In this document: positions 3,105 through 38,938 of the stretch, one piece after another | How the letters are laid out: every line of letters starts with the position of its first letter | Position numbering within the stretch: the stretch's first letter is position 1 | Sequence record: PZ452610.1 | DNA length: 64,000 bases | Reading direction: 5' to 3' (one strand) | From: a phage | Translations under genes and position numbers: made by a program | The notes under the pieces: generated by a model | Seen by the model: only the letters and a program-made list of their open reading frames with translations | Told to the model about the DNA's origin: nothing | The model's database searches: none

Positions 3105-3629
3105 TCATTTTAGCAAAATAAAATCAACTTGTTCTGCCAATGAACGTCTAAACATTAATTGACAACTTCCGAGTATGAAATCAGGTGCTTCATAGACCGC
3201 GATGTAGTATCCTTTAGCTTTCAAGAGTTCAACATCCACTTGGTCATCAAACCATGCATAAACCGCGTCAACACTTTCAAATCCAAAATAGAACCCTTGA
3301 GCCCAATCTTCACTCAATTCAAATGTGTACTCAATTCTATGGTATCTTAAGATATTTTGTTCAAGGAGTTTGTCTTCATTTACTGTAGGACGATTAGGGA
3401 CATTATAGTTGTCGCCGTGATGGTAGAAGTTACCTGAGAGTATTCCATGCTTATCAAGGAATTCCCATGTTTCTTCAGAGTTGTCGGTGCCTGACCAACC
3501 GTACGGCGAGCGAGGTTCTTTATTCCAAGAGGTTTCCCAAATTCTGACGGCTTTACCGTCTTCGATAGCAATTCCTGGTAATGATTCACGTTGAGTACAA
3601 AAACTACGTTCTACGCGGTAAACTAACAT
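3105..3629 (-). CDS. Hypothetical protein, 174 aa
   Basis: ATG 3629 with SD GAGGAG; early promoter immediately upstream. Confidence 0.6.
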   Translation of the reverse strand: MLVYRVERSFCTQRESLPGIAIEDGKAVRIWETSWNKEPRSPYGWSGTDNSEETWEFLDKHGILSGNFYHHGDNYNVPNRPTVNEDKLLEQNILRYHRIEYTFELSEDWAQGFYFGFESVDAVYAWFDDQVDVELLKAKGYYIAVYEAPDFILGSCQLMFRRSLAEQVDFILLK

Positions 3630-3655
3630 ATTATTCTCCTCTGGTTGATATGGTT

Positions 3656-3684
3656 ATAATATCAAATCCAGAGGAGAAGTAAAC
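3656..3684 (-). promoter_or_regulatory. T4-type early promoter (GTTTAC - 17 nt - TATTAT)
   Basis: Minus strand GTTTACTTCTCCTCTGGATTTGATATTAT; spacer TCCTCTGG is complementary to the downstream SD region CCAGAGGAG. Confidence 0.55.
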
Positions 3685-3688
3685 AACT

Positions 3689-4108
3689 TTATGCGAAAGC
3701 AGCTGGGCTATATTTTTTAATTTGGAATTCAGGAACTACCATGAACTGTCCAGCGAAAACAATGTTATAAAGCTTAACACCATCTTCTACCCAACGGTCG
3801 CTAATAAATCCGGCGATTTGCTTAGTTTTCCACGGTGTTCCATCAGTTGCCGCAGCAATAGTGAATTCATGGTCTTTTTCAACAGAAACTGATCTGCATA
3901 ATCCCCATTTGAACGCTTTTTCTTCCGGTTCAATGAATTGGCTTTTAACGTAACCAATGTTACCATCAGCGTCACGAACTTTAACTTCGTTACGTCCAAA
4001 AACAGGATCACTCACAGAAAGAACTTCAACCAACTTCCCGGCAACTTTAGAGCGAGAAGCAACAGATACATATACGTAATCACCTGTAGAGAGATTTACA
4101 ATATTCAT
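3689..4108 (-). CDS. Hypothetical protein, 139 aa; member A of a 3-gene tandem paralog family
   Basis: Shares C-terminal motif GFISDRWVEDGVKLYNIVFAGQF with the next two ORFs; SD AAGGAA. Confidence 0.6.
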   Translation of the reverse strand: MNIVNLSTGDYVYVSVASRSKVAGKLVEVLSVSDPVFGRNEVKVRDADGNIGYVKSQFIEPEEKAFKWGLCRSVSVEKDHEFTIAAATDGTPWKTKQIAGFISDRWVEDGVKLYNIVFAGQFMVVPEFQIKKYSPAAFA

Positions 4109-12470: not shown

Positions 12471-12668
12471 ATGTTTAAACTTCCATCGTTAATCAACGCT
12501 ATTAAAGGCAATAAAAAGAAAACTGCTATCGCTGCAATAGTTGTAGGTGGCATTATTTCATGGAACTTCGGGATTGCACCATTGTTAGTTGCCCATGGTA
12601 TTATAGTTCCTTCTGTTCCATTGGATACTGTAGTTGATTTGGCCTTTGCTATTATAGGGCTTGTTTAA
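12471..12668 (+). CDS. Small hydrophobic protein, 65 aa; only plus-strand gene candidate
   Basis: ATG preceded by strong SD AAGGAG at 5-nt spacing; predicted TM segment; stop overlaps the stop of convergent gene 61. Confidence 0.45.
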   Translation: MFKLPSLINAIKGNKKKTAIAAIVVGGIISWNFGIAPLLVAHGIIVPSVPLDTVVDLAFAIIGLV

Positions 12669-15421: not shown

Positions 15422-15670
15422 TTATTCTTTTTCGCGAATAATAATTACTTGTTGAGGCTGCTGAGCCGATTTCTTTTCGGCAACGATAGACCAAATTAAA
15501 GTTCCAATCCAACCAATCATCGTCCAGTTAAAGAGTAAAGATACAAAGAAGATTGCTGTTGTGCTTTTTGTGCCACGAATAAGTGCGATTACCCAAGGCA
15601 ACATGTAAATGATGATTGAACCAATACCTGCGATTAAAACTGCTACTGAACTAGCTACGAATAATTCCAT
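15422..15670 (-). CDS. Imm_superinfect-family small membrane protein (superinfection immunity-like)
   Basis: 82 aa, two TM segments; motif AIFFVSLLFNWTMIGWIGTLIW resembles the GWxGIGWI signature of the superinfection-immunity family. Confidence 0.55.
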   Translation of the reverse strand: MELFVASSVAVLIAGIGSIIIYMLPWVIALIRGTKSTTAIFFVSLLFNWTMIGWIGTLIWSIVAEKKSAQQPQQVIIIREKE

Positions 15671-15731: not shown

Positions 15732-16100
15732 TTAATTAAATTTGTTTAAACGTTCAATACACTGGACGTAGTTATTCGCGATTTGTTTCTGGGTAGGCTC
15801 TTTACCAGTTGTTTCAACATAACGAATGAATGCGATTTCAGTAGCCTGTAGACAATGTTCTTTAACGCGTTGTTCTTTTGACAATGCTACAGTATCAGAG
15901 TCACGATAACGTTGAGCATGGGCATCAGCTTGAATCATTCGATTACCTACAGTAACCGGGTCTTCCACTTCAACTTTAGGTTGGTCGTACTGTTTAACAT
16001 TCGGATTGTAAATCAATTGGCCAACGTTATTAGGGATAAAGCCATGGGCACCACATCCGGTTAATCCAAATACCATTGCTAAAGCGATTAATTTTTTCAT
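15732..16100 (-). CDS. Putative lipoprotein, 122 aa
   Basis: Signal peptide with lipobox LTGC (MKKLIALAMVFGLTGCGA). Confidence 0.55.
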   Translation of the reverse strand: MKKLIALAMVFGLTGCGAHGFIPNNVGQLIYNPNVKQYDQPKVEVEDPVTVGNRMIQADAHAQRYRDSDTVALSKEQRVKEHCLQATEIAFIRYVETTGKEPTQKQIANNYVQCIERLNKFN

Positions 16101-20249: not shown

Positions 20250-20798
20250 TTAACGAGCCCATTTGATGATTTCTGTAATCAAATCATTACGTTCGCTTGC
20301 ATTAAATCCTATAACTTTGTTAGCACCATCATGATTAAGTAATTGATACGTTTGGATTTTGTTATGAATTGCAAACTCTTCAAAATGTGAAATGACTGTA
20401 TTAAAACCGAATGAAGACAAAGTGATAAGGTCGTCTTCAAAACTTTCAGTCATTTCGTTACGTGTTAAAATAATTGTGAACACATCATGGTTTTGGCAAA
20501 GACGAACATAATCCTGTTCATAAACGTCAAGAACCGAGTCCGCATCTTGTCGAATACGTCCATAAACCCAGTTACTAATATATCCACGGTCTAACAGATA
20601 AATCTTAGTAGGGTCTAAATAATTCAACATCGTTTCGAAACAGCCAACTTCATTTCGAGACTTAACATCGAAACGTCCATCAACTGTTCGTTTAGGGAAA
20701 TCAATCTTTACATATCTTTCACTAATTTCCATTATGTCATTAATGAAAGTTGTTTTACCAGCATTATCCGGGCCATCTACTAAAATAATTTTAGCCAT
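20250..20798 (-). CDS. P-loop nucleotide kinase, thymidylate-kinase-like
   Basis: 182 aa; Walker A GPDNAGKTT and downstream LDRGYISNWVYG resembling the TMK DRY...S motif. Confidence 0.55.
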   Translation of the reverse strand: MAKIILVDGPDNAGKTTFINDIMEISERYVKIDFPKRTVDGRFDVKSRNEVGCFETMLNYLDPTKIYLLDRGYISNWVYGRIRQDADSVLDVYEQDYVRLCQNHDVFTIILTRNEMTESFEDDLITLSSFGFNTVISHFEEFAIHNKIQTYQLLNHDGANKVIGFNASERNDLITEIIKWAR

Positions 20799-20799
20799 T

Positions 20800-21699
20800 T
20801 TATTCCTCGATTACGACATCTTCATATTTAGGTATATTATACGGTGAAGAAATTAAAGCATTAAAGTAGATGAACTCACCAAGACCTGGATGAAATACTT
20901 CTTCAGGATTTTCGAAATATTGAATCTTCGGACGTCCTTTAAGAATTTGATAGTACTCAGTTTTAGTTGGTTTAAAAATTCGAATCAACGCTTCTTCAGG
21001 ATACTTATTTCTGTCGAAGCTATTATTTGGATCGGTTATATAAAGCGGTTGACCTAATTGAATTGCGCATTCAACAACTTGTTCAAAACGATAGCATGGG
21101 TCACTAATTCGAAATGGATGAAAAATACCATCTAGATGAATAGGAGCCAAATCACCTACAAGACGCTGCATGATGGAAGGACGTATAACTTTCTGCGTTA
21201 CGATAATCTTATTACCATCTGCACCTGCGTTAACCAGCACTTCTTTTTGACGTTCATTCAACACAGTAGTTTGAAGTGAACGATTAACCGACAACATATC
21301 AGTTTTTAAGAATTCGTCAATATAAAAACGTGGTTTATTAGGGTCTGCAGTGATATTGAAATTGAATTCCACATCAAAAGCGCCGTCATATCCAGTGATA
21401 TCTGTGATTAAAAAATCACAATCATAATAAGCAATTAATGAATCAACAACAAATTCATTTTCAGACCAGAAATATTTACGAGTGTTATACGCGTTATCTT
21501 TATACCATAATGGAACAAACTTAAATTCTGGAAAAAGACGTTCGCATTCTTTAATATCAGATGCATTACGTGGATATGTAATCACATCACCCGGATTAGC
21601 ACGGTGCAAATGAAGTTGGAAGTTGCCATCCTTAAGGATAGCATACTGTCCAGTTTCATAAGACCGCATACTCAAGATTGGTACGCGGAAAATAGCCAT
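20800..21699 (-). CDS. Hypothetical protein, 299 aa, at the T4 beta-gt position
   Basis: ORF between uvsX and 42 where T4 encodes beta-glucosyltransferase; no similarity to beta-gt recognised. Confidence 0.55.
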   Translation of the reverse strand: MAIFRVPILSMRSYETGQYAILKDGNFQLHLHRANPGDVITYPRNASDIKECERLFPEFKFVPLWYKDNAYNTRKYFWSENEFVVDSLIAYYDCDFLITDITGYDGAFDVEFNFNITADPNKPRFYIDEFLKTDMLSVNRSLQTTVLNERQKEVLVNAGADGNKIIVTQKVIRPSIMQRLVGDLAPIHLDGIFHPFRISDPCYRFEQVVECAIQLGQPLYITDPNNSFDRNKYPEEALIRIFKPTKTEYYQILKGRPKIQYFENPEEVFHPGLGEFIYFNALISSPYNIPKYEDVVIEE

Positions 21700-22415
21700 T
21701 AGTCAAGGAATCCTTTAACATAATCAAAATCACGTTCAAACACATGGGCACTTACCATGGTATGAGTATAATCACCAACTTCTACCCCACATTCGTTAGC
21801 GATATAATGAAGTAATTTTCCTTGGAGATAAAAATCCAACTGCATAACAACAGCACAGTTCTGAGAACGCATATGACAGTGGGTATAAAGCTTACCATCA
21901 CGAATATAATAAGTCACTGAGTCAGTACATGGATATTCAAGCGTTTCGTCCGAATCAAGCAAAGCCTGATCAGAACTTTCTAGAATTTGGAACACAACTC
22001 TTCGAGAGTTAGGCTTCTCTTTAAGTTCTTTTAGAAGAGCTGGTAATTGGGCCGCAATGCGAGGACCATAGAAAGTGTTGAAGTTCGCCGGCAAAACATC
22101 TGATTTTGGTTTAGAAATAAATTTAGCGACATTAGGATATGCCTTAAACGCTTCTTCTGCGTTGGTACCACCAGAAATCATAAACTTCCAGAAGTCTTCG
22201 GCATATTCATAAGAGATGCGGTTAATACGTGGGTCGGTCATTTTGAATGATGATGGAGTGTCAACAACTACTGTCATAGACCCAATTTCATTACAACGTC
22301 CAATACGAGAATCAGTTACGAATTCCGGGTTTTCTAAAATTTCACGATTGACTGCTTTAAATGCGGTTTGAAAATCTGCGGCTTTGATATATTTCATTGT
22401 GTTATGTTTTCCCAT
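21699..22415 (-). CDS. 42: dCMP hydroxymethylase gp42 (thymidylate synthase family)
   Basis: 238 aa; TS-family motifs SRRVVF, active-site PC (EYPCTDS), MRSQN; T4 position. Confidence 0.8.
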   Translation of the reverse strand: MGKHNTMKYIKAADFQTAFKAVNREILENPEFVTDSRIGRCNEIGSMTVVVDTPSSFKMTDPRINRISYEYAEDFWKFMISGGTNAEEAFKAYPNVAKFISKPKSDVLPANFNTFYGPRIAAQLPALLKELKEKPNSRRVVFQILESSDQALLDSDETLEYPCTDSVTYYIRDGKLYTHCHMRSQNCAVVMQLDFYLQGKLLHYIANECGVEVGDYTHTMVSAHVFERDFDYVKGFLD

Positions 22416-22457: not shown

Positions 22458-22697
22458 TTATTTGAATTTCTTGACAATGTTGATATAACGTAAAGCTTCA
22501 GCATCGATACTTCCAAGAACACTATGAAGAAATGCATCAGCGTAGTATTCCAATTGAACAGGTTCTTTAATCACTTTAGCCGCTTTAGTTTCAAACAGGC
22601 CCATCAGGGCCTTTTTAAGAATTTGTTCGTTGCTGTTAATTTTCATAGTCAAAATCTCTTCATTAAGTTGGTGGTTAAAAGTTTTTCTAGAAATCAT
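22458..22697 (-). CDS. Hypothetical protein, 79 aa
   Basis: ORF in operon context. Confidence 0.45.
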   Translation of the reverse strand: MISRKTFNHQLNEEILTMKINSNEQILKKALMGLFETKAAKVIKEPVQLEYYADAFLHSVLGSIDAEALRYINIVKKFK

Positions 22698-23869
22698 TCC
22701 GGGTACCTCAAAGCGTCATCAGAGTTAGTTATATCAATAATAGATATAGAGTTTTCTGCTAACCCGTTTTTAGATAATTGACGTTTATAATATCTTTCAC
22801 AATATGTACACGTCGTCCCGCAGATTTCATTAGCACAATCGAAATCTGGATGTCTGAACCACCTTTTTTCTAAAAAGCCATCTAACAAAGAGGTTTCAAT
22901 ATTTACTGTATGTGAAAACTCAGTTTCGTTTTCAAGAGTGAAAATAGTCTCTAAAGGCTTCCACAGTTCTAACAAATTACCTTCAAACTTTTCAGAAGCG
23001 TATGCTTCAAGAACTTTCAAAATGTAGTCTGTGCTACCTGTACGTCCTGAAACTTTGAATTGAGTGATACCAATATCATTATAAAGTTTCAAATCTTGAG
23101 GACGAACAAAACGAGTTCTCAACCAGTTAAATGGGTCTGTATCACGAGCTTTAATACAGTGCTGCATAGGATATCCGTTTAAGGATTTAGCATCATCAGC
23201 TGTAACATCAGTACTATGGAAAATATAGCAAGAGTCACGATAGCTACAATGTGTTGTATACCCTTTACCAGCATTAGAACAGAACTCATTTACAAGAACT
23301 TCAAATATTATATTGTTCTTATTGCAAAACTCTGCTGCACGCTTCAGGAAAGAAACTGAACGGTTCTTATGAATTCCACAGCAGACCTTTTTGATATTAT
23401 ACTGGTCATGCAAGTATTTGATTTGAGTTACAGCATCGACATGTAGAATTGTTGAAACTTCAATCTCAATGTCTTTATTGACTTCACGAACAATTTCCAT
23501 AACAACAGGGTTAGCGATAGTAATACGCCATACGCCTATTGACCAAAGATACTGAACATAATCCTGAATAGCTTTCTTCTTCCACCCAACTAGTTCTCTT
23601 TTTGAACCAGGATTTATCGTGTTGAGTGTATAGTTAAAGCAAATACCTAATTCGTTACAACGTTTAACGTAATCTTCTAACATCTTTTTGTCAACGTCAG
23701 GAAGCCTAAAATCAGGTCTGGCTGCTACAAAAGCCATTTCTCTTGTAGAGCCGTATACTTCGTTTATCAAGCTATTAGGATAAGTTTTATTGAGCTCTAC
23801 GATTTTATCAAGAAGAGCTAAATCAAAATTCGTTCCAATTTTAAAAGTATTCATTTTTTTGCATCTCAC
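22694..23869 (-). CDS. Hypothetical protein, 391 aa, with C-terminal Cys cluster
   Basis: C-terminal CANEICGTTCTYC (C-x4-C-x3-C-x2-C); family not recognised; sits inside the sugar-nucleotide cassette. Confidence 0.6.
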   Translation of the reverse strand: MRCKKMNTFKIGTNFDLALLDKIVELNKTYPNSLINEVYGSTREMAFVAARPDFRLPDVDKKMLEDYVKRCNELGICFNYTLNTINPGSKRELVGWKKKAIQDYVQYLWSIGVWRITIANPVVMEIVREVNKDIEIEVSTILHVDAVTQIKYLHDQYNIKKVCCGIHKNRSVSFLKRAAEFCNKNNIIFEVLVNEFCSNAGKGYTTHCSYRDSCYIFHSTDVTADDAKSLNGYPMQHCIKARDTDPFNWLRTRFVRPQDLKLYNDIGITQFKVSGRTGSTDYILKVLEAYASEKFEGNLLELWKPLETIFTLENETEFSHTVNIETSLLDGFLEKRWFRHPDFDCANEICGTTCTYCERYYKRQLSKNGLAENSISIIDITNSDDALRYPE

Positions 23870-23910
23870 GTTAATTGATGCGATGGTTTTTGCAGGTCTT
23901 ACTTAAATTA

Positions 23911-24312
23911 TTATAGATTCGGTTTATATGATTTAAATGTTTCGAATTCGCCTTTATTCATAAGAGCTTTGAATTCGTCAGGACGCATAGCTTTGTCGTC
24001 GATAATCCAATCATATACTGGTTTATGTGTTAGCAAATTATGGTACTTCAAACCAATGTTTTCCAAGTTCTGAATCAGACTTGGGAGAATGTCAATTGCT
24101 ATACGACCAGGACCTACTGACTTCATACCGCGAGCAGTGTAAAGCGTTATGGTATGCCCTGCATCATACAGGGCATTAATAGCAGTCACCATTTCGACGT
24201 CTGGTTTGAAGTTCACGTAATCACGATTGTTATTCCACTCTGTTATACAATCATCGACATCAAAACAAAGATTAAGCATGTTTTCTACACGGTGCATTAG
24301 ATTCGTTCCCAT
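23911..24312 (-). CDS. HAD-superfamily phosphatase-like protein, 133 aa
   Basis: N-terminal FDVDDCIT (HAD motif I-like), TLYTARG (motif II), KPVYDWIIDD (motifs III/IV). Confidence 0.6.
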   Translation of the reverse strand: MGTNLMHRVENMLNLCFDVDDCITEWNNNRDYVNFKPDVEMVTAINALYDAGHTITLYTARGMKSVGPGRIAIDILPSLIQNLENIGLKYHNLLTHKPVYDWIIDDKAMRPDEFKALMNKGEFETFKSYKPNL

Positions 24313-25982
24313 TGATGAGTGATATCGCCACCGATTGGACGATAAGAAACACCAGTTTCTTTATCAGTTAGTACCCATTTACCAGGATTTTTTGTAATCA
24401 GAGTAGCCGTTACAGGTTCTGCTACGTCATAACTAATAGAGCCGTCCTGAAGTACACGGCCCATGTTACGTAATTGCTTAGTCAGAAGTTCCATACCTTT
24501 ATAATATGCGGCTACCGCTTTAAGTGGATTATTCTTGAAATAACCACCTAATGCAATCCAGATAATTGCTACAGCCAAATGATGATACTCGTTAAACGAA
24601 CTCATCTTTCCATATTTGTAAACTAATGGATTGATGTTAATAGTCACATTACAAGTTGTTTCGTCAATAGTAAACTGTCCCCAGGTCGGATTAGCGTTGA
24701 ATTCATCATAACCTGAAACAGCATAAAGCACTTTAGCTTCATCATACAATTTTGGCCCGTAAATCTTGGTTTCGCCAAAATATCCACGAGGGTCGATAAA
24801 CTTGACTTCGCCGTTATCAGTAATCATAGTATTACTGAAGTTCGGGTCACCGTGAATAACAGAGTACTGTCCCTGAGAACGGGTATGATAACGAATAAGA
24901 TGTTCTAAAGCTTGCTTCAGCATTGGCTTCAGACGTCCAATCTTAGTGTAGTTCACGTGTGTGATTTTACCAAATGAATCAATCAATGGCTGAATGCTTT
25001 CACAACGATCAATAACTTTCGTATAGAACTCTTTAGTGAAATCACGGCGAACAGTTTCAGGACTTACAAAATAAGTGTCTGTGCTGAATTTCAGTGCATC
25101 TAAAATTGCATCAACAATTTGTGGACGAGCAAGACTTGATTTGGATTTAATATATTCAAATGCTGGCTTACCTTTAATACGTTCCATTTCAAAATTATTT
25201 TCATTTACCGAAACTAACTGAGGAACTGAATCTGATTTCACTTTCAAATACCATGAAATCTCATCTTTTTGAAGAGCTCGACCTTGTTCGGTTAACGCGA
25301 ATTTAGTTACAGTTTCTTCGCCAATTTCAACTGCATTAAAACTACGATTAAGTTCACGAACTTCATGAGCTTTTTCAAGTTTAGGCATATCACCTAAATC
25401 AATTAGATTCATAAGCTCTGATTTATTGAATGCACTGCCGTAAAGGAATTCTACGAAATCACGTCCTTTGCAGTATTCATGAATTTCCTCATCAGTAGAA
25501 CCCATGTAGAATTCCCAGTCTTTGAACTGATAAATTCCTACAACATTACCGCCTGTTGAACCTACGTTAGTGATATTTTCACCATCGAAATTATATCGAC
25601 ATTCATCACCCTTAACATAGATTGCGTTAACATTCCAAGACCATGAACCAAAATCAGGAATAATATCACACCAGTTAACAATTACGTTATGGCCATCTAA
25701 ATCTTTGTATAATTTAGCAAGAGCATAAGCAGAACCATACGCTTCATCAACTGTACGAATAGTCACATTGAACCCTTCTTGCTCGCAATAAGCTCGAACA
25801 GTTTCAGCAAATTTTGAATGAACTACTACAATAATTTCATCTGCGCCAAGGTCAGAATAAATTGTATACAAATTGCTCAGAATAGTGTCTTGTTTATAGT
25901 TAACAAGAACTTTTGGAATATGATGCGTTATTGGATACAAACGAGTTGCCAGTCCAGCACCAAGAATAACAGCTTTTTTCAT
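24297..25982 (-). CDS. Bifunctional sugar-1-phosphate nucleotidyltransferase / APH-type sugar kinase
   Basis: 561 aa; N-terminus KAVILGAGLATRLYPITHHIPKVLV (NTP-transferase G-x-G-x-R-L); C-terminus HGDPNFSNTMITDNGEVKFIDPRGYFG (APH/ChoK catalytic loop). Confidence 0.75.
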   Translation of the reverse strand: MKKAVILGAGLATRLYPITHHIPKVLVNYKQDTILSNLYTIYSDLGADEIIVVVHSKFAETVRAYCEQEGFNVTIRTVDEAYGSAYALAKLYKDLDGHNVIVNWCDIIPDFGSWSWNVNAIYVKGDECRYNFDGENITNVGSTGGNVVGIYQFKDWEFYMGSTDEEIHEYCKGRDFVEFLYGSAFNKSELMNLIDLGDMPKLEKAHEVRELNRSFNAVEIGEETVTKFALTEQGRALQKDEISWYLKVKSDSVPQLVSVNENNFEMERIKGKPAFEYIKSKSSLARPQIVDAILDALKFSTDTYFVSPETVRRDFTKEFYTKVIDRCESIQPLIDSFGKITHVNYTKIGRLKPMLKQALEHLIRYHTRSQGQYSVIHGDPNFSNTMITDNGEVKFIDPRGYFGETKIYGPKLYDEAKVLYAVSGYDEFNANPTWGQFTIDETTCNVTININPLVYKYGKMSSFNEYHHLAVAIIWIALGGYFKNNPLKAVAAYYKGMELLTKQLRNMGRVLQDGSISYDVAEPVTATLITKNPGKWVLTDKETGVSYRPIGGDITHQWERI

Positions 25983-26023
25983 GTTGTGGTCCTCATTGGT
26001 AAGTAGGTGTATTGTACACTATT

Positions 26024-26167
26024 CTAGTTAAAGCATTCATACTTTGCTTGTAGTCCAATCATAATCCATCCAATTACAAGTGTTGGAATCATTACTGGAG
26101 CCGTTAAGCTCCAGTAGATAGTCATGACAAGCATCAATAGTAAAAGTCCTATTGTTATTGCTTTCAT
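26024..26167 (-). CDS. Possible small membrane peptide, 47 aa (not in ORF track)
   Basis: ATG overlaps the TGA of the SIS gene (ATGA coupling); MKAITIGLLLLMLVMTIYW... hydrophobic. Confidence 0.3.
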   Translation of the reverse strand: MKAITIGLLLLMLVMTIYWSLTAPVMIPTLVIGWIMIGLQAKYECFN

Positions 26168-26799
26168 TGTTCGCCTCGTAACATGGCACCTAGTGCACCG
26201 CCTGGATGGAACTTAAGAAAGTCATTAGAGGTAAATCCACGTTCAGACGAAAGGTTGATAGCAAACGTATCGATAAGCGCTAACAACAATGTAGTGGACA
26301 TAGTCGGAGCCAGAGAATTCTCATCAACCTCTACCGCGATGCCTGTACAGAAAGAGTAATCAAAAAGGGCTTCATTTTCTTGCGGAATGTCTGGGTTACA
26401 ATGCAACAGAATCTGTTTGACATTTGGACGAATCATTTTAAGATGCTTAGCCACGCCTATCATTTCTTCAGTCTTACCAGAACGACTAATATGAATCAAC
26501 ACATCATTAGGCGCAATGAATCCTGCATCACCGTGAGAATAATGCCCAGTGTTCAAGTACATACTCGGGATACCGAGTGAAGCAAATGTCTCAGAAGCTT
26601 TAGTTGCAATATTAGCATTCTTACCAACACCTGTAATAATTACTCGGCTTTCATAATTACTAAGTCCAGGGCGTCGAAGAGTTTCTAGAATAGCATTATA
26701 ACGAGCAGGGTTTTGACTAATTACTTTGGCCATAGCGGCCAAAGAAGAAGCTTGTTTTATGATTGCGTCAATAGCGATAGTAATAGGAGTAGTTTTCAT
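26164..26799 (-). CDS. Arabinose-5-phosphate isomerase-like SIS-domain protein (KdsD/GutQ type, no CBS domains)
   Basis: 211 aa; VIITGVGKNANIATKASETFASLGIPS...HGD...HISRSGKT and C-terminal HPGGALG parallel the E. coli KdsD SIS domain. Confidence 0.8.
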   Translation of the reverse strand: MKTTPITIAIDAIIKQASSLAAMAKVISQNPARYNAILETLRRPGLSNYESRVIITGVGKNANIATKASETFASLGIPSMYLNTGHYSHGDAGFIAPNDVLIHISRSGKTEEMIGVAKHLKMIRPNVKQILLHCNPDIPQENEALFDYSFCTGIAVEVDENSLAPTMSTTLLLALIDTFAINLSSERGFTSNDFLKFHPGGALGAMLRGEQ

Positions 26800-34941: not shown

Positions 34942-35176
34942 CCTCGATACATGCTTCAGCCATTTTAAGAATAGAGCCAGGAGTATCGTTGTCCATTATA
35001 TTAAAGCTAAATTCAATAGCCCAGTCGGTACAGACATGAACGGCTTTAACTTCATTGCCTTCAACGCGTAATGGCTCAATCCAATACTTGATAGTGTTCT
35101 CGAATCCATCATCATCTTTAACGTCTATTTCAACTTCAAGCCCAAGCCCGGCATTGTTAAATTCATCTAAAGTCAT
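34919..35176 (-). CDS. Hypothetical acidic protein, 85 aa
   Basis: ORF between 46 and 47. Confidence 0.5.
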   Translation of the reverse strand: MTLDEFNNAGLGLEVEIDVKDDDGFENTIKYWIEPLRVEGNEVKAVHVCTDWAIEFSFNIMDNDTPGSILKMAEACIEDAYNDED

Positions 35177-36192
35177 TGTGTTGCCTCAATATAAAGTTCG
35201 TTAGAATATTTGACCAGCGCTTCTCTGTCTTCGTCTGAGATATCTGGAATCGCGTCAATATATTCTTTAATGATATCTTGAAGTGATTTAATCTCGATTT
35301 CCTGGTCGTCATCAGATTCAACACTGTTATCAACTTTAGAAACCATACGAAGAGAGTGAACTACTTTTTCAAGTTCAGATTCAAACTTAGTCAACTCTGA
35401 ATCAATTTCTGATACTATAACACGTACGGCTAGATTAGTATAATCAGAATAATTGATTTTGCCTTTAAACGGATAAGTGATTCTTCGATGCCATGTTGTT
35501 TCATTAGGAATAAATTCCATACGTTCAACATCAGTGTCAAATACCCAGAATCCACGCGGGTCGTTCTCATCACCTGCAGTAAGGGTCCACGGTGTTCCAA
35601 TATATTTGACGTTAGCAGCTTCAGAGATTGTGTGGAAGTGGCCTGACCAGACTTGTTTATAAGTCTTTAAGAAATCAGGTTCAAGCCCATGAGACTTCAT
35701 CCCTTTATAGAAATAAAAGCCGTTCAGTTCCCAGTGCCCAACACAATACGCAGCAGAAGAAGTCTTGATGTGCTCTAAGATTTCACCTGTATTTTCTTCA
35801 CACATCCATGGAACGATATCAATCAGACATCCGTCAAAATCTACAGTAGTCGGATGCTCATAAATAGTAAAGTTTTCAAATTGAGTTAACAATTCAGAAA
35901 CAGTGTTAGGTGTTATTGTATTCTTAAACGCCATGTCATGGTTTCCTATCGTGACATGAACGTGAATGCCTGCTTTAGAAATCATATCAACGATTTCACG
36001 ATTGAATTCCATTGTACGATGTGTTATTGCTTTACGGACGTCAAACCAATCACCGTACTGAATCCAAGTTTTAATCCCGTGTTTCTTAGAGTATTCAATT
36101 GCTTGTCGAATACCATCACGTTGAATATCTTGAACCCATGGGTCGTCTTGTTTGACTCCGATATGGAAGTCGCCTAAGTGCAAAATTTTCAT
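35173..36192 (-). CDS. 47: Recombination nuclease subunit gp47 (Mre11/SbcD-like)
   Basis: 339 aa; phosphoesterase motifs LHLGDFH, GNHD, GHWE. Confidence 0.95.
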   Translation of the reverse strand: MKILHLGDFHIGVKQDDPWVQDIQRDGIRQAIEYSKKHGIKTWIQYGDWFDVRKAITHRTMEFNREIVDMISKAGIHVHVTIGNHDMAFKNTITPNTVSELLTQFENFTIYEHPTTVDFDGCLIDIVPWMCEENTGEILEHIKTSSAAYCVGHWELNGFYFYKGMKSHGLEPDFLKTYKQVWSGHFHTISEAANVKYIGTPWTLTAGDENDPRGFWVFDTDVERMEFIPNETTWHRRITYPFKGKINYSDYTNLAVRVIVSEIDSELTKFESELEKVVHSLRMVSKVDNSVESDDDQEIEIKSLQDIIKEYIDAIPDISDEDREALVKYSNELYIEATQ

Positions 36193-36230
36193 ATTATTTC
36201 CTCATTAGTTAATTCATTTTATCATCCGTT

Positions 36231-36262
36231 TATAAAGCAAAAAAGGAACTCCGAAGAGTTCC
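36231..36262 (-). terminator. Rho-independent terminator
   Basis: Minus strand GGAACTC-TTCG-GAGTTCC followed by TTTTTTGCTTTAT. Confidence 0.65.
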
Positions 36263-36435
36263 TATCCACATAGTACACCGTACAGAGGCTCATTTGAACT
36301 TTTAAATCGAATTGGCTTGTACGTAATAGTTCCTTCGGCTTTAGCTTTATCATAAGACTCTTTAAAACGTCTCATTCTTTCTGCTTTGCCTTTACGGATT
36401 TTATCGAAATTTTCAGAAGTCGGGATGTTCGTCAT
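36262..36435 (-). CDS. Small basic protein, 57 aa (below ORF-track cutoff)
   Basis: Hand translation MTNIPTSENFDKIRKGKAERMRRFKESYDKAKAEG...; SD GAGAGG; stop abuts terminator. Confidence 0.45.
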   Translation of the reverse strand: MTNIPTSENFDKIRKGKAERMRRFKESYDKAKAEGTITYKPIRFKSSNEPLYGVLCG

Positions 36436-36474
36436 GCATAAGCACCTCTCAGAAAATGCCTAAATCAATTTCTC

Positions 36475-36696
36475 TCATCGTTTCCACCATTTCTTAACTT
36501 GAAATGAATCGGCCCACACGAGTTGTTTTGGGTCTGCCTTTACAATAGGCGGACAAATTTCTGTAATAGAACCGTCGTGATATTCCTTTTCAGAAATTTT
36601 AACACAAAGAGGACCTCCCAATTTAAGGGTGAACCCTGCGTTCAGCTTCAGACGTTTAAACTTTGTTTGAACTAGCGCCATTAATGATGTCCTCAA
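36475..36696 (-). CDS. Hypothetical protein, 73 aa
   Basis: ORF in the 47-55 interval where T4 carries alpha-gt. Confidence 0.45.
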   Translation of the reverse strand: MRTSLMALVQTKFKRLKLNAGFTLKLGGPLCVKISEKEYHDGSITEICPPIVKADPKQLVWADSFQVKKWWKR

Positions 36697-36979
36697 TAGC
36701 CTGACGAGTAGTAACCCACTGGATTTTAATTAACTTGTCATTGTATGGTTGTCGTAGAATATCCCGAGATTTCTTAATAGCATATTCGTAAGCTTCGAAG
36801 TTGTTTTGAATTGCTGCTTCTTGAGCATGAGCATAAAGACGGTTTAGTTCAAAACGATTCTTTTTAAGAATCTTTTCGGATTTTTTACGTGCTTCAGCTT
36901 CATTTTTCTTTTGGATTTCTTGTAGCATTTTAGCTACTGCATCTTCTGCTTCTTTATTTTCAATAATCTCGGTAGTCAT
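36656..36979 (-). CDS. Hypothetical protein, 107 aa
   Basis: ORF; charged, helical composition. Confidence 0.5.
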   Translation of the reverse strand: MTTEIIENKEAEDAVAKMLQEIQKKNEAEARKKSEKILKKNRFELNRLYAHAQEAAIQNNFEAYEYAIKKSRDILRQPYNDKLIKIQWVTTRQAIEDIINGASSNKV

Positions 36980-36980
36980 A

Positions 36981-37196
36981 TTATCTCATTAAATTAAAAT
37001 AAAAACGTCCATCCTCTTCAATACAGAACTCATACTCAACTGGAGTCCCATTTATCGAAAATGACACGTCATGTGGGTTCAAAGGGTCGATGTCAAAATT
37101 AATTTTAAATTCACGACCCAACAGTTTTACCAAATAAGGGATTGCTTCGTCAAAAGGTTCTTCTAAGTAGTTAGAGATGTCAATTGTCATCCTCAT
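36981..37196 (-). CDS. Hypothetical protein, about 71 aa
   Basis: Track ORF overlaps the gp55 C-terminus; internal Met start about 37196 minimises the overlap. Confidence 0.45.
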
Positions 37197-37755
37197 ATAA
37201 AAAATCCAAACTAGGCGAATCGCTAACAACTTCCTTCTTTTCAGCCCCAGGAGCTTTATAAGCGGATTCTTCATAATGCGTCATTTTATCGTAGATGTCT
37301 TGAATAAACGTTTCATCTACTAACGCTACCATATCATCGTCATGACTGTCGTAGACATTATGAACGAAGTAACTATATTTCTTTGCAACTTCCTTACGTT
37401 CTTTTTTGATACGTTGGACAAAAGCATTAAAACAAGCTCGAGTTATGTATGCATGTGGGTTATTGTACTTAGTTTCGTCGAAATTATGAAGTCCCTTAAT
37501 AGAGGCTTCAATCCCATCTGCAATCATCTCCTGCTTCCAAGACTGGGTATATCCTGAAAAGTTGAAACGTTTGGACAGGCCTTCGGCGATAAGCATAATT
37601 GCTAAACCGATGGTATCATTCTGACGAATAATTTTGTTTGGGTCTTTATTATTTAAGAGCTCCTTTTTCCACTCGATTATAGCGGCGAGAAGCTCTTTAT
37701 TATTCACATAGTTATTTTTAGGTTTTTGTTCAGTCATAAGTACCTCTTGGCTCAA
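37180..37755 (-). CDS. 55: Late-transcription sigma factor gp55
   Basis: 191 aa; [69 protein letters not shown] matches T4 gp55. Confidence 0.95.
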
Positions 37756-37809
37756 TTCATAGGTCTATTATATCATAATATTTAGAGACCTATCTTAAAG
37801 CACGAGATA

Positions 37810-38671: not shown

Positions 38672-38698
38672 TATACTCTGCTCTCAAGAGTCTGTACA

Positions 38699-38938
38699 CT
38701 ATTTTTTAAGCATGAAAAGCAAGTAATTTGTATCGCGTGGGCTGATATCGACACCCATATCAAAGATACCTTTATATATTGGGTATTTGTTTTCGGTTGT
38801 ATCGAAGCTGAAACTATTTCCATCACAACTAACAGTAATAGCATCTGTTAAAATGTCATACTCAATCCTAACAATTGAATCCCCAATTTTAACGTCGAGG
38901 TGTTTTTTGAATTTGATAAAATCTAATTCTTGGGCCAT
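38699..38938 (-). CDS. Hypothetical protein, 79 aa
   Basis: ORF. Confidence 0.45.
   Translation of the reverse strand: MAQELDFIKFKKHLDVKIGDSIVRIEYDILTDAITVSCDGNSFSFDTTENKYPIYKGIFDMGVDISPRDTNYLLFMLKK

Follow-up and report, generated by a model that had tools for sequence, protein, structure and literature searches.

What does a T4-like phage carry on its cytosines when the alpha-glucosyltransferase gene a-gt is missing from its place between genes 47 and 55? The question is raised by a 64,000-nucleotide stretch of phage DNA (PZ452610.1; the window, meaning here the whole stretch that was analyzed). A first-pass annotation, made from the letters of the window, had pointed out that T4 has a-gt in this interval and the window does not, and had judged that this, together with a lack of b-gt and dam, fits a phage whose 5-hydroxymethylcytosine (hmC) is left unglucosylated. 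We found a gene layout of the RB69 type, without a-gt, and the lineage very probably uses a different cytosine hypermodification, arabinosylated 5-hydroxycytosine (5hoC). The DNA of the window phage is probably neither glucosylated nor based on hmC.

Read in reverse complement, positions 147739 to 83740 of NC_041863.1 (Escherichia coli O157 typing phage 3) reproduce the window, differing from it at 2 of 64,000 bases. This record is classified in the Straboviridae, Tevenvirinae, genus Mosigvirus, which is also the genus of phage RB69. Whole-genome searches were run on the complete NC_041863.1 (168,733 base pairs [bp]). Coordinates given below are those of the window, and features lie on its minus strand, unless stated otherwise.

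Absence of glucosyltransferase and dam genes

In T4, the order of the interval is 55, a-gt.5, a-gt.4, a-gt.3, a-gt.2, mobB, a-gt, 47.1, 47, so that a-gt does lie where the annotation had placed it. In the window, gene 47 and a-gt.2 are separated by a spacer of 69 bp (36193-36261), and tblastn with T4 a-gt (400 amino acids [aa]) detected no homolog between them, the best E-value being 2.6 in the window and 1.4 in the genome; the interval thus indeed lacks a-gt. The annotation had also held that b-gt and dam are missing, and had proposed a tblastn search of the complete genome with T4 alpha-gt, beta-gt, and dam. This search, which we extended to 47.1, mobB, and segA, returned no homolog in the genome (best E-value, 0.39) or in the window itself, in agreement with the claim. 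The best match of T4 Dam in the complete genome had an E-value of 1.4, and that of the T2-type ba-gt (beta-alpha-glucosyltransferase, query from RB27) had an E-value of 0.82. The positive controls gp47, gp55, gp56, gp61, and imm were recovered with E-values from 1e-31 to 0.

We then scanned stop-to-stop open reading frames (ORFs) of at least 100 aa for the motif [DNS]PP[YFW]. No ORF of methyltransferase size has it; the two carriers, of 159 and 109 aa, are both too small for a Dam-type enzyme and stand in a context that is not methyltransferase-like. In T4, b-gt adjoins gene 42 and dam lies between genes 61 and 56, whereas the window phage has neither gene. Its gene 61/gene 56 interval holds a 65-aa ORF (12471..12668, plus strand; 98.5% identity to RB69 ORF029w), which is on the strand opposite to that of all its neighbors. 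Since the genome has no homolog of a-gt, b-gt, ba-gt, or dam, we expect neither glucosylation nor Dam methylation of its DNA. RB69 likewise lacks all four genes, and Thomas et al. reported in 2018 that no homolog of a-gt, b-gt, or ba-gt could be identified in it (PMC6024577).

A predicted 5-hydroxy-dCMP synthase at the gene 42 position

The absence of these four homologs would also suit a phage that makes hmC in the manner of T4 and leaves it bare, and so would the presence, where T4 has gene 42, of a thymidylate-synthase-family gene (21699..22415; 238 aa) whose product is assigned by Pfam to Thymidylat_synt only. However, this protein has 25% identity to T4 gp42 and 99.2% identity to RB69 gp48, a demonstrated 5-hydroxy-deoxycytidine monophosphate (5-hydroxy-dCMP) synthase (PMC13326640), and it matches the PDB entries 9iqc, 9ir2, and 9iqu with an E-value of 8e-161. 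In an alignment numbered according to E. coli ThyA, the reference sequence of which was entered by hand, residues 169, 177, and 143 of the protein are N, D, and E, respectively. It thus carries the full 5-hydroxy-dCMP synthase signature (D169N, N177D, and L143E), whereas the corresponding residues are D, D, and D in T4 gp42 and D, N, and L in the window phage's own thymidylate synthase. T4 gp42 makes 5-hydroxymethyl-dCMP and has D at position 169; with N at this position and its low identity to gp42, the window counterpart is probably not a dCMP hydroxymethylase of the gp42 type. D169N has been reported to predict 5-hydroxy-dCMP synthase activity (PMC13326640), and RB69 gp48 converts dCMP into 5-hydroxy-dCMP by using molecular oxygen and flavin (Lee et al. 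2026, PMC13326640). We therefore predict that the protein at 21699-22415 is a 5-hydroxy-dCMP synthase.

The DNA chemistry known from the genus argues in the same direction. RB69 DNA contains mono- and poly-arabinosylated 5hoC, with the ether link directly to C5 (PMC13326640); Thomas et al. (2018, PMC6024577) had earlier described arabinosyl-hmC in RB69, and the identity of the base has since been corrected (PMC13390438). DNA of the Mosigvirus NP contains mono- and di-arabinosylated deoxycytidine in a ratio of 1:4 (PMC13390438), and both DNAs were measured as fully arabinosylated (PMC13326640, PMC13390438). Together with the transferases and the arabinose-phosphate pathway described below, these data make bare hmC a very improbable state of the window phage DNA. 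Of the annotation's conclusion, the lack of glucosylation stands, as no transferase homolog was found, while the hmC part is not supported, given the RB69 gp48-type enzyme at the gene 42 position.

Predicted genes for arabinosylation

We next looked for the other components of an RB69-type system, which requires two GT-B transferases and a sugar-nucleotide pathway with an isomerase, a phosphatase, a kinase, and a nucleotidyltransferase. The slot of T4 b-gt is occupied by a gene for a 299-aa protein (20800..21699) with the GT-B glycosyltransferase fold in its predicted structure; it is the predicted first DNA arabinosyltransferase, and the result reproduces one published for RB69 gp46:47 (PMC13326640). 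The second putative arabinosyltransferase is a homolog of RB69 gp3/ORF003c (NC_041863.1, 147861-148961; 99.7% identity), which matches the glycosyltransferase of phage HY126 (PDB 9iqz) with an E-value of 8e-250. It sits between gene 39 and rIIA.1, 122 bp past the first base of the window, which itself starts within gene 39, and it was therefore not visible to the first-pass annotation. Both transferases are thus present in the complete genome.

The sugar-nucleotide pathway genes extend from the gene 42 position to gene 43 (22694..26799), and their products have 97.7 to 100% identity to RB69 gp50, gp51, gp52:53, and gp55. They encode a U32-peptidase-like protein, a phosphatase-like protein, a fused nucleotidyltransferase and kinase, and an arabinose-5-phosphate isomerase with a SIS domain, so that all the required pathway enzymes are found in the window; Pfam recognizes Peptidase_U32, NTP_transferase, and SIS in this set. 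The roles of these gene types in the pathway are predictions (PMC13326640, PMC6024577), and E. coli O157 typing phage 3 has been named among the phages with a homolog of RB69 ORF53_52c of at least 97% identity (PMC6024577). The RB69-type modification cluster also contains a nucleotide-kinase-like protein (20250..20798; 99.5% identity to RB69 gp45), which has no Pfam match and for which a role was predicted in PMC13326640.

The RB69 record splits gp46/gp47 and gp52/gp53, whereas the window has one 299-aa ORF and one 561-aa ORF (24297-25982) in their places. The single 299-aa ORF supports the remark in PMC13326640 that the gp46/47 split in RB69 is a sequencing error. As a separate observation, the single 561-aa ORF is consistent with a frameshift or a sequencing error in the old RB69 record at gp52/gp53.

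The fold of these transferases raises another reading, in which a divergent GT-B pair glucosylates the DNA from uridine diphosphate-glucose and functionally replaces a-gt and b-gt. The fold alone connects the T4 transferases with the two putative arabinosyltransferases, neither of which shows sequence-level similarity to the T4 enzymes in BLASTP. Against such a replacement, the sugar found in RB69 DNA (PMC6024577, PMC13326640) and in NP DNA (PMC13390438) is arabinose and not glucose, the transferase is clustered with the arabinose-5-phosphate isomerase and the sugar-1-phosphate nucleotidyltransferase/kinase, and the acceptor base would have no hydroxymethyl group. We thus regard glucosylation by these enzymes as highly improbable.

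Proposed pathway

We propose that the T4 module mobB, a-gt, 47.1 is absent because the lineage relies on arabinosylated 5hoC as its cytosine hypermodification. The gp56 dCTPase would deplete dCTP, and the flavin-using thymidylate synthase homolog (21699-22415) would hydroxylate dCMP at C5, yielding 5-hydroxy-dCMP, which would then be phosphorylated and incorporated into DNA. In parallel, the isomerase, the phosphatase, and the kinase/nucleotidyltransferase encoded at 22694-26799 would make a nucleoside diphosphate-arabinose donor, from which the two GT-B transferases (the 299-aa protein and the gp3 homolog) would put one or two arabinoses on the 5-hydroxyl in DNA, presumably in that order. In a lineage with 5hoC, a glucosyltransferase specific for hmC would have no substrate.

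This analysis establishes which genes are present, their orthology, the fold of the 299-aa protein, and the active-site signature. The steps of the pathway are drawn mostly from near-identity to RB69, which also suggests that this isolate makes the modification of RB69. Several points weigh against the proposal. The literature that we searched contained no chemical analysis of O157 typing phage 3 DNA, and even in RB69 it is still a matter of prediction which sugar the transferases use and which nucleotide-sugar serves as the donor (PMC13326640, PMC13390438). The 299-aa transferase had no match in Pfam or in PDB sequence searches, so that its assignment rests on the predicted structure. For the function of a-gt.2 to a-gt.5, a literature search turned up only the 2006 listing of a-gt.4 as a conserved ORF of unknown function among T4-like phages (Nolan et al., PMC1524935). 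Finally, the tree described below appears to favor neither loss nor non-acquisition of a-gt in the Mosigvirus lineage.

Small genes between genes 47 and 55

We then analyzed the interval itself. Its left border is gene 47 (35173..36192), which encodes the SbcD-like recombination nuclease subunit (76% identity to T4 gp47 and 100% to RB69 gp47; PHROG 100, E = 1.6e-135), and its right border is gene 55 (37180..37737), which encodes the late sigma factor (91% identity to T4 gp55; PHROG 234, E = 3.9e-68). The first-pass annotation had described a terminator, a basic 57-aa ORF, and three ORFs of 73, 107, and about 71 aa as standing here instead of a-gt. These elements are present, with the correction that the second ORF reaches 73 aa only if the upstream TTG at 36696 is taken as its start and has 68 aa from its ATG. 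They do not stand in for a-gt, however: the four ORFs are orthologs of T4 a-gt.2 to a-gt.5 (E-values of 3e-24 to 1e-14), and because T4 carries these genes as well, they are no substitute for it.

The a-gt.2 ortholog (36262..36435; 57 aa) has 76% identity to the T4 protein and 95% to that of RB69 and belongs to Pfam DUF5486 (E = 4.5e-28); its isoelectric point (pI) of 9.78 and its excess of K and R (13) over D and E (7) make it a basic protein. The a-gt.3 ortholog (36475..36681 from the ATG; 69% identity to T4 and 98.5% to RB69) matches PHROG 1648 (E = 2.9e-34) and no Pfam family. The a-gt.4 ortholog (36656..36979; 107 aa, 58% identity to T4) belongs to DUF2654 (E = 1e-27), and tblastn found a-gt.4 homologs in 1,443 phage records, among them Acinetobacter, Vibrio, and Aeromonas phages. 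The 107-aa ORF was also considered as Emp, the growth-inhibiting early peptide of Mosigvirus (bioRxiv 10.64898/2026.09.14.751387), and this assignment was rejected, as Emp adjoins motA, outside the interval. The a-gt.5 ortholog (36981..37196; 71 aa, 47% identity to T4 and 100% to RB69; DUF5491, E = 5.8e-13) is acidic (pI 4.3), and its first codons overlap the last ones of gene 55. Since a-gt.2 to a-gt.5 persist in phages without a-gt, the prefix "a-gt" in their names is positional and not functional.

Terminator-like hairpin and middle-promoter match in the spacer

In the sense of the genes, the spacer reads as a hairpin, T6, TGCTTTA, 11 bp, TAAAAT, the ribosome-binding site GAGG, and the start codon (ATG) of gene 47. 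The hairpin (36244..36263), found by a pattern scan, resembles an intrinsic terminator: GGAACUCUUCGGAGUUCC folds into a stem of 8 bp capped by a UUCG loop, with a predicted fold energy of -13.9 kcal/mol, and is followed by U6 (six T residues in the DNA). It begins within the a-gt.2 stop codon. Ahead of the ribosome-binding site of gene 47, TGCTTTA (a MotA box), the 11-bp spacer, and TAAAAT (36216..36239) match TGCTTYA-N11-13-TANNNT, the middle-promoter consensus of T4 and RB69 (PMC1524935). This consensus occurs 14 times in the window versus 1.84 expected, a count reached in 0 of 100 shuffles, and a gene for a MotA homolog is present in the complete genome. Judging from these matches, the hairpin may act as a terminator and the MotA-box match as a promoter, so that a-gt.2 to a-gt.5, as early/middle genes, would be closed by the hairpin and the MotA-type promoter would then precede genes 47 and 46.

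By megablast with positions 35100-37800, the region is 100% identical in E. coli O157 typing phages 3, 6, and 13, and the gene 47-gene 55 interval is contiguous in 147 phage records, with an identity of at least 95% in 136 of these. Although the slot is variable, with other inserts in related genera, a recent deletion or an assembly gap confined to this isolate is hardly credible, given these records, the identical layout of the independently sequenced RB69, and a spacer that forms a complete unit of terminator, promoter, and ribosome-binding site and holds no a-gt remnant.

A variable site bordered by cassettes

The site between a-gt.2 and gene 47 differs in content across genera. It holds mobB, a-gt, and 47.1 in T4, a-gt alone in Jiaodavirus Mineola, a 256-aa ORF without a Pfam match in Dhakavirus KIT01 (L010, 3299-4069), an HNH-AP2 endonuclease in RB49, three small ORFs and an unannotated 47.1 homolog in Gelderlandvirus CGG4-1, and nothing in Acinetobacter phage Apostate and the Mosigviruses. 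Dhakavirus is also listed among the 5hoC phages (PMC13326640). The ORF in Salmonella phage CGG4-1 (L009, approximately 3597-3737, plus strand) lies directly upstream of gene 47, starts with MITYLGILSLLTGLYLFGRACWVGFFSTPDGF..., and is a clear homolog of T4 47.1. As CGG4-1 has this homolog without a-gt at the site, 47.1 is not tied to a-gt.

We found that a unit of a UUCG-loop hairpin, a MotA box, and a -10 element recurs at the borders of this site. T4 has it twice, after a-gt.2 (before mobB) and after a-gt (before 47.1). Mineola has it on both sides of a-gt, KIT01 has one after a-gt.2, and Mosigvirus has a single copy, in contrast to the T4 copies flanking mobB and a-gt. The cassettes are located at 36216-36263 in the window, at 38680-38731 and 36585-36623 in T4 (L002), at 3430-3452 and 4697-4760 in L008, and at 3166-3210 in L010. 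The window cassette shares 24 of 34 positions with the T4 copy after a-gt.2 and 27 of 34, with more gaps, with the copy after a-gt; as the two matches are about equal, no crossover or hybrid scar could be located in the window spacer against the two T4 cassettes.

According to a published proposal, the shuffling of modules in T4-like phages is mediated by composite terminator/promoter cassettes called PeSLs (Arbiol et al. 2010, PMC2839356; Comeau et al. 2014, PMC4122927). Like PeSLs, the units described here combine a short stem-loop with a promoter and lie at the boundaries of variable modules. They differ in that the published PeSLs have an early-promoter consensus, whereas the promoter part here fits the MotA-dependent middle consensus. 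We tentatively raise the possibility, which we think rather unlikely, that the cassettes are middle-promoter counterparts of PeSLs and that recombination between them swaps DNA modification modules at the gene 47/a-gt.2 site in the Tevenvirinae. If so, they would offer a concrete route by which lineages switch between the glucosyl-hmC and arabinosyl-5hoC chemistries.

Distribution of a-gt

Homologs of a-gt were found in 657 phage records, essentially from Tequatrovirus (identity of at least 90%) and Klebsiella Jiaodavirus (approximately 66%). Between T4 and Mineola, identity is 64% for a-gt, a level similar to the 67% for gp46 and the 70% for gp47. In a neighbor-joining tree of gp47 and gp55, which with its two genes is not a reliable species tree, T4 grouped with Mosigvirus (bootstrap support, 94.5% of 200 replicates), and Jiaodavirus grouped with Gelderlandvirus. 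With a-gt in Tequatrovirus and Jiaodavirus only, each scenario needs several gains, transfers, or losses.

Comparison with RB69 and T4

The absence of glucosyltransferases in RB69-type phages and their arabinose chemistry are already known for the genus: the lack of a-gt, b-gt, and ba-gt was published in 2018, in a paper naming O157 typing phage 3 (PMC6024577), and the replacement chemistry was described in 2025-2026. The cassette structure bordering the a-gt module may be the only, mildly new angle. The distinction matters in practice, as equating a T4-like phage without glucosyltransferases with bare hmC would lead to wrong predictions of its sensitivity to restriction, Type IV systems, and CRISPR.

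RB69 has the same gene order as the window (47, a-gt.2, a-gt.3, a-gt.4, a-gt.5, 55), annotated under those names. The small proteins are 95 to 100% identical between the two phages and the modification cluster is 97 to 100% identical, with few amino acid differences; the DNA chemistry was measured for RB69, whereas the window isolate is known here from its sequence. T4 and the window share genes 46, 46.1, 46.2, 47, and 55 and a-gt.2 to a-gt.5 as orthologs in conserved order. Only T4 has mobB (a homing endonuclease gene), a-gt, and 47.1, which together take up approximately 2.28 kb between a-gt.2 and gene 47. A further difference concerns imm and imm.1, which lie between genes 42 and 43 in T4, where the window has the arabinose pathway genes. 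The window homologs of imm and imm.1 are at 15422-15670 and 15732-16100, near sp and dmd.

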